This document shows positions 25,221 through 28,694 of a DNA stretch of 64,000 nucleotides, piece after piece; the stretch's first letter is position 1; every line of letters starts with the position of its first letter. The translations under genes and the position numbers were made by a program. The notes beneath the pieces were generated by a model, which ran no database searches, was not told the DNA's origin, and saw nothing but the letters and a program-made list of their open reading frames with translations. Location: NCBI RefSeq assembly GCF_055900595.2, contig NZ_CM148325.1, one strand, 5' to 3'.

Positions 25221-26873
25221 ATGTTAGCGCAGCTTTTTGAGCAGTTGTTTCAATCGATAGACTCTACACTGATCACCAATATTTTCATCTGGGCTGTTAT
25301 ATTCGTATTTTTATCAGCGTGGTGGTGTGACAAAAAAAATATACATAGTAAGTTTAGAGAATATGCTCCAACCTTAATGGGGGCATTAGGTATTCTGGGT
25401 ACTTTCATTGGTATTATTATTGGGTTACTCAATTTTAATACTGAAAGTATTGATACCAGCATCCCCGTATTATTAGGCGGCCTAAAAACAGCATTCATTA
25501 CAAGCATTGTAGGTATGTTTTTTGCCATTTTATTTAATGGAATGGATGCTTTCTTTTTTGCCAATAAACGAAGTGCGTTAGCAGAAAATAACCCTGAATC
25601 TGTTACACCTGAACATATCTATCATGAATTAAAAGAGCAGAACCAGACTCTGACTAAATTAGTCTCGGGTATTAACGGTGATAGTGAAGGTTCTCTTATT
25701 GCTCAAATAAAATTACTACGTACTGAGATTAGCGATTCCTCGCAGGCACAATTAGCTAATCACACTCATTTCAGTAATAAGCTTTGGGAACAACTTGAAC
25801 AATTTGCAGATCTAATGGCAAAAGGTGCTACAGAACAAATTATTGATGCTTTACGACAAGTCATTATTGATTTTAATGAAAATTTAACTGAACAGTTTGG
25901 TGAAAACTTTAAAGCACTTGATGCCTCTGTAAAAAAACTTGTTGAGTGGCAGGAAAATTATAAAACGCAAGTTGAGCTGATGTCAGAACAATATCAACAA
26001 AGTGTCGAGTCTCTGGTTGAAACAAAAACTGCGGTTGCCGGGATTTGGGAAGAATGTAAAGAAATTCCTCTGGCTATGTCTGAACTGCGTGAAGTGCTTC
26101 AGGTGAACCAACATCAAATCAGCGAACTCTCCCGCCATTTAGAAACCTTTGTCGCTATCCGCGATAAAGCTACAACCGTATTACCTGAAATACAGAACAA
26201 AATGGCTGAAGTGGGTGAACTGCTGAAATCCGGAGCTGCAAATGTTAGTGCATCTCTTGAGCAAACCAGCCAGCAAATACTTCTTAATGCAGATTCAATG
26301 CGCGTGGCCCTGGATGAAGGTACCGAAGGATTCAGACAATCGGTTACCCAAACACAACAAGCATTTGCCTCGATGGCACATGATGTCAGCAATTCCTCCG
26401 AAACTCTAACCAGCACGTTAGGTGAAACAATTACTGAAATGAAACAAAGTGGTGAAGAATTCCTGAAGTCACTAGAGTCGCACTCGAAAGAATTGCATAG
26501 AAATATGGAACAAAATACGACTAATGTAATTGATATGTTCAGTAAGACTGGTGAAAAGATTAACCATCAACTATCCAGTAATGCCGATAATATGTTTGAT
26601 TCAATCCAGACATCATTTGATAAGGCAAGTGCAGGGCTGACTTCTCAAGTCAGAGAATCAATTGAAAAATTTGCTCTATCCATCAACGAGCAGTTACATG
26701 CTTTTGAGCAAGCAACTGAACGTGAGATGAACCGTGAAATGCAATCATTAGGTAATGCTCTGCTTTCAATCAGCAAAGGTTTTGTCGGTAACTATGAAAA
26801 ACTTATTAAAGATTACCAAATAATTATGGGGCAGTTACAAGCATTAATTTCTGCTAATAAACATCGAGGGTAA
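25221..26873 (+). CDS. ZorA-like MotA/ExbB-family membrane protein with long coiled-coil tail (Zorya type II-like)
   Basis: N-terminal hydrophobic helices with MotA/ExbB-like GILGTFIGI signature; ~350 aa Q/E/L-rich C-terminal tail; AT-rich codon usage. Confidence 0.65.
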   Translation: MLAQLFEQLFQSIDSTLITNIFIWAVIFVFLSAWWCDKKNIHSKFREYAPTLMGALGILGTFIGIIIGLLNFNTESIDTSIPVLLGGLKTAFITSIVGMFFAILFNGMDAFFFANKRSALAENNPESVTPEHIYHELKEQNQTLTKLVSGINGDSEGSLIAQIKLLRTEISDSSQAQLANHTHFSNKLWEQLEQFADLMAKGATEQIIDALRQVIIDFNENLTEQFGENFKALDASVKKLVEWQENYKTQVELMSEQYQQSVESLVETKTAVAGIWEECKEIPLAMSELREVLQVNQHQISELSRHLETFVAIRDKATTVLPEIQNKMAEVGELLKSGAANVSASLEQTSQQILLNADSMRVALDEGTEGFRQSVTQTQQAFASMAHDVSNSSETLTSTLGETITEMKQSGEEFLKSLESHSKELHRNMEQNTTNVIDMFSKTGEKINHQLSSNADNMFDSIQTSFDKASAGLTSQVRESIEKFALSINEQLHAFEQATEREMNREMQSLGNALLSISKGFVGNYEKLIKDYQIIMGQLQALISANKHRG

Positions 26874-26879
26874 TCGATC

Positions 26880-27587
26880 ATGGATAAGATTATAGGGAAA
26901 CAATTACCTAAAAAAGATCAAGATAATGAACACTGGGTATCCATGTCAGACCTAATGGCAGGGCTGATGATGGTTTTTATGTTCATATCTATTGCTTATA
27001 TGCACTACGTACGTATTGAAAAAGAAAAAATTAAAGAAGTTGCCGTAGCCTACGAGAATGCTCAGTTACAGCTTTATAATGCTCTGGATATTGAGTTTGC
27101 AAAGGATTTGCAAGACTGGGATGCAGAGATCGATAAGCAGACTCTGGAGGTTCGATTTAAATCACCGGATGTTTTATTTGGCTTAGGAAGCACAGAGCTT
27201 AAACCAAAGTTTAAACTCATTCTTGACGACTTCTTTCCTCGCTACCTAAAAGTTCTTGATAATTATCAAGAACATATTACTGAAGTCCGCATTGAAGGTC
27301 ACACAAGTACTGACTGGACTGGAACAACGAATCCTGATATTGCTTATTTTAATAATATGGCACTATCACAAGGTCGTACACGTGCAGTATTACAATACGT
27401 TTATGATATAAAAAATATCGCGACACACCAACAATGGGTTAAAAGTAAATTTGCCGCAGTAGGTTATTCATCTGCACATCCCATTCTTGATAAAACCGGC
27501 AAGGAGGATCCTAATCGCTCTCGTCGTGTCACCTTCAAAGTTGTAACAAATGCCGAGTTGCAGATTAGAAAGATTATTCAGGAGTAA
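26880..27587 (+). CDS. ZorB-like MotB/OmpA-family protein
   Basis: N-terminal TM segment LMAGLMMVFMFISIAY; C-terminal OmpA-like peptidoglycan-binding pattern GHTSTD...NMALSQGRTRAVLQYV; 7 nt after the ZorA-like stop. Confidence 0.65.
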   Translation: MDKIIGKQLPKKDQDNEHWVSMSDLMAGLMMVFMFISIAYMHYVRIEKEKIKEVAVAYENAQLQLYNALDIEFAKDLQDWDAEIDKQTLEVRFKSPDVLFGLGSTELKPKFKLILDDFFPRYLKVLDNYQEHITEVRIEGHTSTDWTGTTNPDIAYFNNMALSQGRTRAVLQYVYDIKNIATHQQWVKSKFAAVGYSSAHPILDKTGKEDPNRSRRVTFKVVTNAELQIRKIIQE

Positions 27588-27590
27588 GAG

Positions 27591-28694
27591 ATGAAATTAT
27601 CTATCGACATTTCAGAACTTATTCAATTAGGGAAGAAAATGTTACCAGAAGGAGTCGATTTTTTTCTGGATGAATCCCCTATTGACTTTGATCCTATAGA
27701 TATTGAGTTATCCACGGGTAAAGAAGTTAGTATCGAAGATCTTGACCCTGGTAGCGGGCTTATCTCTTATCATGGCCGCCAGGTTCTTTTATATATTAGG
27801 GACCATTCAGGGCGTTATGATGCGGCTATCATCGATGGCGAAAAAGGAAAACGTTTTCATATTGCCTGGTGCAGAACTCTTGATGAAATGCGCCATAAAA
27901 ATCGATTTGAAAGGTATCATGCAACTAACCGCATAGATGGTTTATTCGAAATTGATGATGGTTCAGGTCGGAGCCAGGATGTTGATTTACGGGTATGTAT
28001 GAATTGTCTGGAACGACTTAATTACAAAGGAAGTATTGATAAACAAAGGAAAAGAGAGATTTTTAAATCATTCTCATTAAATGAGTTTTTTTCAGATTAT
28101 AGTACCTGTTTTCGTCATATGCCTAAGGGTATCTATGACAAAACAAATAGTGGGTATGTCGAAAACTGGAAAGATATATCAAAATCAATACGAGAAAAGG
28201 CCAAGTATACTTGTAATGATTGTGGTGTGAATTTATCAACCGCCAAAAACTTGTGCCATGTCCATCATAAAAATGGCATCAAATATGATAATCACCATGA
28301 AAACCTTCTTGTTCTGTGTAAGGATTGCCATCGTAAACAGCCCCTCCATGAAGGTATATTCGTTACCCAAGCTGAGATGGCTATCATTCAACGTTTACGT
28401 TCCCAACAAGGGTTATTAAAAGCCGAATCCTGGAATGAAATATATGACCTGACTGATCCATCAGTACATGGTGATATTAATATGATGCAACATAAAGGCT
28501 TTCAACCTCCTGTTCCTGGGTTAGATCTTCAAAACTCAGAACATGAAATTATTGCAACCGTAGAAGCAGCATGGCCAGGCCTTAAAATTGCAGTTAACCT
28601 TACTCCCGCCGAAGTCGAAGGATGGAGAATATATACCGTGGGTGAGCTGGTTAAAGAAATACAAACAGGAGCCTTTACGTCAGCAACGTTGTAA
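27591..28694 (+). CDS. ZorE-like HNH endonuclease
   Basis: HNH motif CHVHHKNG...NHHENLLVLCKDCHRK; 4 nt after the ZorB-like stop. Confidence 0.6.
   Translation: MKLSIDISELIQLGKKMLPEGVDFFLDESPIDFDPIDIELSTGKEVSIEDLDPGSGLISYHGRQVLLYIRDHSGRYDAAIIDGEKGKRFHIAWCRTLDEMRHKNRFERYHATNRIDGLFEIDDGSGRSQDVDLRVCMNCLERLNYKGSIDKQRKREIFKSFSLNEFFSDYSTCFRHMPKGIYDKTNSGYVENWKDISKSIREKAKYTCNDCGVNLSTAKNLCHVHHKNGIKYDNHHENLLVLCKDCHRKQPLHEGIFVTQAEMAIIQRLRSQQGLLKAESWNEIYDLTDPSVHGDINMMQHKGFQPPVPGLDLQNSEHEIIATVEAAWPGLKIAVNLTPAEVEGWRIYTVGELVKEIQTGAFTSATL

Follow-up and report, generated by a model that had tools for sequence, protein, structure and literature searches.

A type II Zorya operon at the edge of a Zorya II-Druantia III-ARMADA II array by leuX in Escherichia coli

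Type II Zorya is a phage defence system consisting of the membrane proteins ZorA and ZorB and the nuclease ZorE, and the version of Escherichia coli ATCC 8739 was reportedly tested by Doron et al. in 2018. We analysed an operon of this type, zorA2-zorB2-zorE, located in a stretch of 64,000 nucleotides (contig NZ_CM148325.1 of the NCBI RefSeq assembly GCF_055900595.2), which is referred to as the window and whose first letter is position 1. The genetic, biochemical and synergy data published for type II Zorya come from the systems of ATCC 8739 and ECOR19, and the type II ZorAB structure comes from an S. kujiense homologue.

In the experimental work on ATCC 8739 (Mariano et al. 2025; PMC11890865), defence depended on a ZorB able to bind peptidoglycan, on the tail of ZorA, on an ion-conducting motor and on ZorE, and it was abolished by the D24N mutation in ZorB; a 5:2 structure was solved for the S. 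kujiense homologue (PDB 8VVI). ZorE was described as a monomeric nickase that prefers supercoiled DNA and that, under native expression, is at the membrane only during infection and only with ZorAB; DNA damage hits phage and host, leading to population-level protection (PMC11890865). Expressed from its own promoter, the system is active (PMC11890865, Fig. 6j legend), and the dependence of defence on the three genes, ion flux and the nuclease was shown for both the ATCC 8739 and the ECOR19 systems (PMC11890865, PMC13192584). Phages restricted by one or the other of them are T7, T3, CS16F and phAvM. Zorya and Druantia have been described as a conserved, co-mobilised and synergistic array (PMC12458937, PMC13192584); the array of Zorya II, Druantia III and ARMADA II is placed at a tRNA-Leu gene (by ahr) or at a tRNA-Phe gene (Bell et al. 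2025 preprint, PMC12458937), and Druantia III uses ZorE without ZorAB against phage Bas37 (PMC13192584).

The zorA2-zorB2-zorE operon and its products

The window very probably carries an intact, functional-looking type II Zorya operon of E. coli, at the edge of a Zorya II-Druantia III-ARMADA II array by leuX. This is an already known system and not a discovery: the operon carries the names zorA2, zorB2 and zorE in hundreds of RefSeq genomes, E. coli copies included, and the window proteins are identical to those of E. coli SMS-3-5 (WP_000880882.1, ZorA2; WP_000357807.1, ZorB2; WP_000777273.1, ZorE), with the same start and stop positions in the RefSeq annotation. The 3.9-kb Zorya region was found in 593 of 5426 complete E. 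coli genomes (about 10%), 529 of which hold at least 80% of it. Two copies interrupted by insertion sequences were also seen: in SCPM-O-B-12142 (NZ_CP144928.1; L002 17859-18974), IS1 deleted Druantia and ARMADA and truncated zorA2, with zorB2 and zorE intact by a truncated fimD; in KFu014 (NZ_CP091712.1, hit H26), IS2 lies between druH and zorA2.

An earlier note, made from the raw sequence, had read this locus as three tightly spaced plus-strand genes encoding a MotA/ExbB-like membrane protein with a long tail, a MotB/OmpA-like protein and an HNH nuclease, that is, a type II Zorya. The coordinates that it gave were exact (Table 1) and the defence system was recognised correctly, which makes the operon a positive control for the scan. 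The three open reading frames (ORFs) are co-directional, full-length and free of frameshifts; gaps of 6 and 3 nt separate them, and Shine-Dalgarno-like motifs precede zorB2 (GAGGG) and zorE (AGGAG). The zor genes are AT-rich, as the note had said (GC content 0.377-0.383, compared to 0.479 for the window; GC at third codon positions, GC3, 0.30-0.32).

The type assignment rests on the NCBIfam equivalog models, whose curated bit cut-offs were passed by all three proteins: ZorA2 (NF041792, 1139 bits, cut-off 700, coverage 1-550 of 550 residues), ZorB2 (NF041787, 444 bits, cut-off 400) and ZorE (NF041791, 691 bits, cut-off 600). These scores bear out the hidden Markov model check that the earlier note had proposed. 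The PADLOC type II profiles gave E-values of 2.6e-302 (ZorA2), 2.2e-104 (ZorB2) and 1.9e-176 (ZorE2), all three in full-length matches, and the type I and type III Zorya profiles scored far lower. None of 12 neighbouring proteins had a Zorya type I or type III effector (ZorC/ZorD, ZorF/ZorG) as its best profile match; the sole ZorD1 match was to ArmA (3.8e-15), far below the DrmD/BrxHII matches of the same protein.

The predicted architecture of the two membrane proteins corresponds to motor subunits. ZorA2 contains three hydrophobic segments of transmembrane (TM) length (residues 12-36, 48-74 and 81-114; Kyte-Doolittle), a Pfam MotA_ExbB match at residues 51-110 (28 bits) and similarity to chain F of 8VVI (the type II ZorA of S. 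kujiense; E=7e-38), so that the MotA-like core expected of a 550-residue ZorA is present. The tail that follows is predicted to be helical: it has 4 prolines in 435 residues, is rich in amphipathic repeats and matches amphipathic-helix families. ZorB2 has a single N-terminal TM segment (residues 20-44, Kyte-Doolittle) bearing the ion-coupling Asp24, an OmpA domain of the peptidoglycan-binding type (Pfam, residues 99-213, E=3.8e-08, 34 bits) and similarity to chain A of 8VVI (E=1.5e-52).

ZorE has no TM segment by Kyte-Doolittle hydropathy and contains the CxxC/HxHH/N/CxxCH core of an HNH nuclease. It keeps all 12 of the residues mutated by Wu et al. (PMC13192584): H90, E99, Y109, Y189, the catalytic H226, K231, N234, H235, N238, L239, H247 and H253. 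A PDB sequence search with full-length ZorE gave no match, and no structure of ZorE is on deposit.

The mechanism that may be proposed is drawn from the literature on near-identical or homologous systems. Five ZorA2 and two ZorB2 subunits would assemble in the inner membrane into a rotary motor of 5:2 stoichiometry, driven by ions and related to the flagellar stator MotAB, an assembly predicted for the window copy from its homology to 8VVI; ZorB2 would anchor it to peptidoglycan through the OmpA-like domain and conduct ions via Asp24, and the five ZorA2 C-termini would bundle into a long cytoplasmic tail. Upon envelope attack by a phage, ZorB would engage the cell wall, the channel would open and ZorA would turn; in response, the cytoplasmic nickase ZorE would be drawn to the membrane where infection takes place and, being locally concentrated there, would nick phage and host DNA and block phage spread. 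ZorE might also be open to co-option by the neighbouring Druantia III without ZorAB. From the protein identity to ATCC 8739 (98-99.6%) and the intact residues, phage defence by the window copy is likewise expected to depend on the three genes, on ion flux through the ZorB aspartate and on the nuclease activity of ZorE.

Transcription of the operon is presumed to start within the 211-bp intergenic region shared with the divergent druH, which has been kept together with the genes in the listed genomes (98.9-99.8% identity) and contains sigma-70-like matches on the plus strand at 25021-25050 (10/12) and 25098-25125 (9/12, with TG). When positions 24800-29200 were scanned for promoters and terminators, neither count exceeded the one expected from shuffling. 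Past zorE, a hairpin was missed by the terminator scan, because it has no T-run, and was found by folding (-16 kcal/mol, z = -3.0; 1 of 200 shuffles equal or better); it is a possible operon-end terminator or RNA-stabilising element.

Several points weigh against an intact and functional type II Zorya working as proposed. The intergenic region contains 13 promoter-like sites compared to 14.8 expected from shuffling. The generic HNH models of Pfam are not significant in ZorE (HNH_3, E=0.081), so that the case for an HNH nuclease is made by the models of the ZorE family, by the motif and by published biochemistry. The single-sequence AlphaFold2 model of ZorA2 is of low confidence (predicted local distance difference test, pLDDT, 48); its tail is all-helical, and the model is weak support for this feature alone. 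The triggering by envelope or peptidoglycan perturbation, the rotation and the recruitment of ZorE by the tail are models; and the literature is divided between direct immunity and damage to the infected cell of the abortive type (PMC11890865, discussion).

Linkage with Druantia and ARMADA, and the C-terminal domain of ZorE

Base composition changes gradually along the array: GC is 0.50-0.53 in armC, armB and armA, 0.488 in druE and 0.397 in druH (GC3 0.321), next to the values of the zor genes given above. The largest step lies between druE and druH and not at the Druantia-Zorya boundary, and druE and druH are one system with congruent phylogenies (PMC13192584). The contrast in composition that the earlier note had drawn between the zor genes and Druantia consequently holds for druE and fails for the adjacent druH. 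Since the step falls inside Druantia III and not between systems, units of acquisition in this island cannot be told apart by base composition.

The separate acquisition of Zorya that had been proposed on these grounds is not supported by the composition of druH or by the linkage data. A 2.2-kb druH-zorA junction probe was covered over at least 80% in 510 genomes, compared to the 529 in which at least 80% of the Zorya region is present; all seven plasmid-borne copies have the junction; and the druH-zor block is found at another tRNA site in ATCC 8739. In a very divergent genome (locus L006; GCA_043422775.1, 1-11143), DruH, DruE, ZorA, ZorB and ZorE are encoded co-directionally with a uniform GC of 0.43-0.44, at identities to the window of 32% (DruE), 33% (ZorA, 616 aa in that locus), 39% (ZorE) and 59% (ZorB). 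It follows from the position of the GC step, the junction counts, the second tRNA site and this divergent locus that the linkage of Zorya and Druantia is old and has recurred, which agrees with the synergy reported for the two systems. As a side observation, zorA-zorB-zorE is directly followed by a gene for a 719-aa UvrD-type helicase in a metagenomic contig (L004).

ZorE ends in an extension that is not covered by the short ZorE profiles of PADLOC and that was described as nuclease-like, unassigned and typical of Druantia-associated ZorE (Wu et al., 2026 preprint, PMC13192584); for the association with Druantia, Wu et al. give a figure of 90%. The extension is homologous to the extreme C-terminus of ArmC (35% identity over 75 residues, E=9e-10), encoded 20 kb away. 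The idea that it mirrors a domain of DruE was dropped, as it showed no similarity to DruE. A search of 1.84 billion representative proteins returned 96 relatives: those of ZorE length (about 360-390 aa) have the domain at the C-terminus, and a 546-aa relative (P0093) is a fragment of a YprA-like helicase. Short (<140 aa) and intermediate hits were considered as stand-alone domain proteins, and this was rejected; the five that were checked were all truncated ZorE fragments.

In an alignment of 51 domain sequences (full-length ZorE numbering), W328 and W345 are invariant and W281, D289, P307, G310, A327 and G344 are conserved at 90% or more, while an acidic position 312, E325 and K332 are majority residues in the consensus of this alignment only. 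AlphaFold2 run on the alignment gave a confident alpha-alpha-beta-beta-beta-beta-alpha model (pLDDT 87; predicted template modelling score, pTM, 0.76), and a Foldseek search of the model against AFDB50 retrieved ZorE-type proteins together with many DUF1998/MrfA-Zn/DEAD-box helicases. A PDB search with the domain as a single sequence gave no match; a PDB profile search had SmpB as its best match (E about 0.9), taken as chance; Pfam gave nothing meaningful on the C-terminal 470 residues of ArmC or on the 51-member alignment.

ARMADA type II ArmC has been reported to end in Vsr-family domains (PMC12458937), and the Vsr-like fold modelled for the ZorE extension agrees with this, linking both observations. 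The same Vsr-like domain is found at the end of ZorE, of ArmC and of other defence helicases of the YprA/DUF1998 family. That it ties ZorE to the helicase-based systems of the array, for instance through the same DNA intermediate or a shared partner, is a speculation to which we give a low probability; if true, it would explain the presence of the domain in Druantia-associated ZorE variants and the use of ZorE by Druantia without ZorAB. The homology with ArmC and the Vsr-like fold offer a concrete handle on the cooperation of the three systems of the array.

Another reading is possible, if somewhat unlikely: the Zorya II of the window would be non-autonomous, working chiefly as one arm of a Zorya-Druantia-ARMADA super-system, with ZorE acting mainly on DNA intermediates of the YprA-family helicases DruE and ArmC. 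The conservation of the array at two tRNA sites, the recurrence of the Zorya-Druantia linkage in the divergent L006, the homology of the ZorE and ArmC C-termini, and two published results, the synergy of Druantia III with Zorya II and the use of ZorE against Bas37 without ZorAB (PMC13192584), all speak for it. Yet Zorya II on its own, in clones lacking Druantia and ARMADA, gives protection from T7, CS16F and T3 (PMC11890865, PMC13192584), and no stable ZorE-Druantia complex was detected (PMC13192584). The super-system is an extension of the explanation by an intact Zorya II operon and not its replacement.

It is very improbable that the operon is a decaying or silent remnant without a defence function in the source strain. 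Copies with an IS1-truncated zorA2 or with IS2 between druH and zorA2 exist elsewhere, the island lacks an integrase and looks immobilised, and the zor operon has no statistically supported promoter; but none of the three ORFs is shortened and their products match a widespread RefSeq allele exactly, no tested functional residue has been lost, the 211-bp upstream region has been kept along with the genes, and the ATCC 8739 system, at 98-99.6% protein identity, is active from its native promoter (PMC11890865). The remnant was rejected on the intact ORFs, residues and upstream region.

There is next to no chance that the ZorA/ZorB-like pair is an ordinary stator or energiser (a MotAB, ExbBD or TolQR paralogue) for motility or envelope transport with an unrelated HNH gene beside it, a reading suggested by the generic Pfam matches (MotA_ExbB and OmpA only) and the weak MotB, MotS and TssL-type NCBIfam matches of ZorB, and rejected on profile scores: the generic stator-type matches reach 27-43 bits against cut-offs of 140-520, and the best MotB/MotS-type matches of ZorB 36-40 bits against 259-300, whereas ZorA2 and ZorB2 pass their own cut-offs; ZorA has no MotA/ExbB equivalog match and, with three TM segments and its tail, is unlike MotA in architecture; the zor genes are translationally close-packed and kept as a unit in the 529 genomes; and the neighbours are defence genes throughout, none of them of the flagellar, Ton or Tol kind.

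The array and its chromosomal setting

The preferred interpretation, an intact Zorya II operon, places it in the published Zorya II-Druantia III-ARMADA II array, here with a complete Druantia III, in which the arm and dru genes lie on one strand and zorA2-zorB2-zorE is divergent from druH. The arm genes were defined according to PMC12458937, and gene order and identity match the ATCC 8739 array, including a UvrD-type ArmD. The RefSeq start of druE lies 9 nt further in than the ORF listed in Table 1. One segment of armB (7893-8946, about 1 kb, GC 0.42) diverges from both SMS-3-5 and ATCC 8739, a 414-bp piece aligning at 81% between flanks of about 99%; it resembles an exchanged target-recognition segment, in which case the source strain would differ in methylation or recognition specificity.

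On the right-hand side of zorE come a frameshifted nanM remnant, an HNH gene, the gene of a phosphorothioate-DNA-dependent restriction endonuclease, a 681-aa ORF, leuX and ahr, a layout as described for the tRNA-Leu hotspot (PMC12458937). The interval from the array to leuX contains no integrase gene, consistent with the immobilised element described in the literature. The flank past zorE and the nanM remnant are also found at the tRNA-Phe site of ATCC 8739, where positions 28920-29257 of the window are deleted internally; the scar being common to both tRNA sites, the whole array has therefore moved between tRNA hotspots with it.

The HNH and endonuclease genes at 29521-31180 form a divergent nuclease pair. 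No dnd or ssp modification genes are visible within the window, and the endonuclease therefore looks type IV-style, aimed at phosphorothioate-modified invaders. The 681-aa ORF had no Pfam or NCBIfam match and a marginal PADLOC one (PDC-M29B, E=0.0012); it is a RefSeq hypothetical (WP_115197891.1 in SCPM-O-B-12142), absent from SMS-3-5, which has a JetD-domain cluster at that position, and is a candidate for an uncharacterised defence gene. From 34.7 to 64 kb the window consists of core genome: idnK, idnD, pepA, valS, argI, pyrB, mgtA. Between valS and pyrB (50189-52081 and 53861-55438) there are three low-GC ORFs of 407 aa (minus strand), 167 aa (plus strand) and 525 aa (minus strand) without an NCBIfam match at E<=1e-10, presumably poorly characterised yjg-type E. 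coli genes.

Table 1 Features of the zor operon, the defence array and the adjoining region of the window.
Feature	Position	Strand	Details
zorA2	25221-26873	+	550 aa; MotA/ExbB-like inner-membrane subunit
ZorA2 TM core	aa 12-114, nt 25254-25562	+	Hydropathy peaks, Pfam, PDB match
ZorA2 long cytoplasmic tail	aa 115-550, nt 25563-26870	+	Helical by prediction
zorB2	26880-27587	+	235 aa; MotB-like subunit
ZorB2 Asp24 codon	26949-26951	+	D24 intact
zorE	27591-28694	+	367 aa; effector nuclease
ZorE N-terminal DUF8245-type region	about aa 1-190	+	Pfam DUF8245 found in relatives
ZorE HNH core	aa 208-253, nt 28212-28349	+	CxxC...HxHH...N...CxxCH
ZorE C-terminal extension	aa 267-367, nt 28389-28691	+	Predicted alpha-alpha-beta-beta-beta-beta-alpha, Vsr-like PD-(D/E)xK fold
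druH-zorA2 divergent intergenic region	25010-25220		211 bp; presumed zor promoter region
Hairpin, perfect 11-bp	28705-28730	+	Starts 11 nt past the zorE stop codon; TCCGTGAAAGT-TAAG-ACTTTCACGGA
druH (Druantia type III)	21650-25009	-	PADLOC DruH3 E=0, 2545 bits, full length; NCBIfam YjiT_fam 988 bits
druE (Druantia type III)	15336-21659	-	YprA-like helicase-nuclease; PADLOC DruE3 E=0, 2173 bits
armA (ARMADA type II)	12254-15112	-	SNF2/DrmD-like profile
armB	7329-12251	-	PglX/type IIG methyltransferase-like profile
armC	988-7329	-	YprA/DruE-like profile
armD	starts near 990, runs past left window edge	-	Open frame to the edge; partial in window
nanM (N-acetylneuraminate epimerase, kelch) remnant	28874-29513; also L003 39381-39853		Frameshifted; directly past zorE
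HNH endonuclease gene	29521-30171	-	216 aa
Phosphorothioated-DNA-binding restriction endonuclease gene	30251-31180	+	NF045808, 438 bits (cut-off 180)
681-aa ORF	31799-33844	-	GC 0.328, GC3 0.26; between phosphorothioate-DNA endonuclease gene and leuX
leuX, tRNA-Leu(CAA)	34526-34610
ahr	34764-35825

Comparison with described Zorya and stator systems

The closest described system is the Zorya II of ATCC 8739 (NC_010468.1, 4265907-4269380), which has the same three genes in the same order, with the same lengths (550, 235 and 367 aa) and spacing, and which shares with the window the divergent druH neighbour and the nanM remnant past zorE. Protein identities are 99.1% (ZorA2), 99.6% (ZorB2) and 98.1% (ZorE); the 13 substitutions are five in ZorA2, all in the tail, L65I in ZorB2 and seven in ZorE, the last affecting none of the tested functional residues. 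The ATCC 8739 array (NC_010468.1, 4239557-4269380) is 98.7-99.0% identical to that of the window at the nucleotide level and differs in its site, a tRNA-Phe gene by the cad operon instead of leuX (tRNA-Leu).

The S. kujiense type II ZorA5B2 (8VVI), the only solved type II ZorAB structure, matches the window proteins across the TM core and proximal tail of ZorA and across all of ZorB, and has the ion-coupling aspartate and the OmpA-like domain in common with the window ZorB2; the S. kujiense ZorA is 378 aa long compared to the 550 aa of the window protein, the E. coli tail being about 170 residues longer. Type I Zorya (ZorABCD; PDB 8QYH, 8QYK, 8QYY, 8VVN) has the ZorAB motor principle in common with type II, and its ZorA1/ZorB1 profiles and PDB entries gave weak but significant matches to the window proteins; it differs in a larger ZorA and in its effectors, ZorC and the SNF2-helicase/Mrr-like nuclease ZorD, whereas the window has an HNH nickase and no ZorC or ZorD. 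MotAB and ExbBD/TolQR resemble the window pair in the 5:2 ion-driven architecture, the MotA_ExbB channel, the MotB-like plug and TM aspartate and the OmpA-like anchor (PMC11890865); the window operon differs from them in that three TM helices are combined with a long, pentameric tail in the cytoplasm, a nuclease is encoded alongside and the surroundings are a defence island and not a flagellar or Ton locus.

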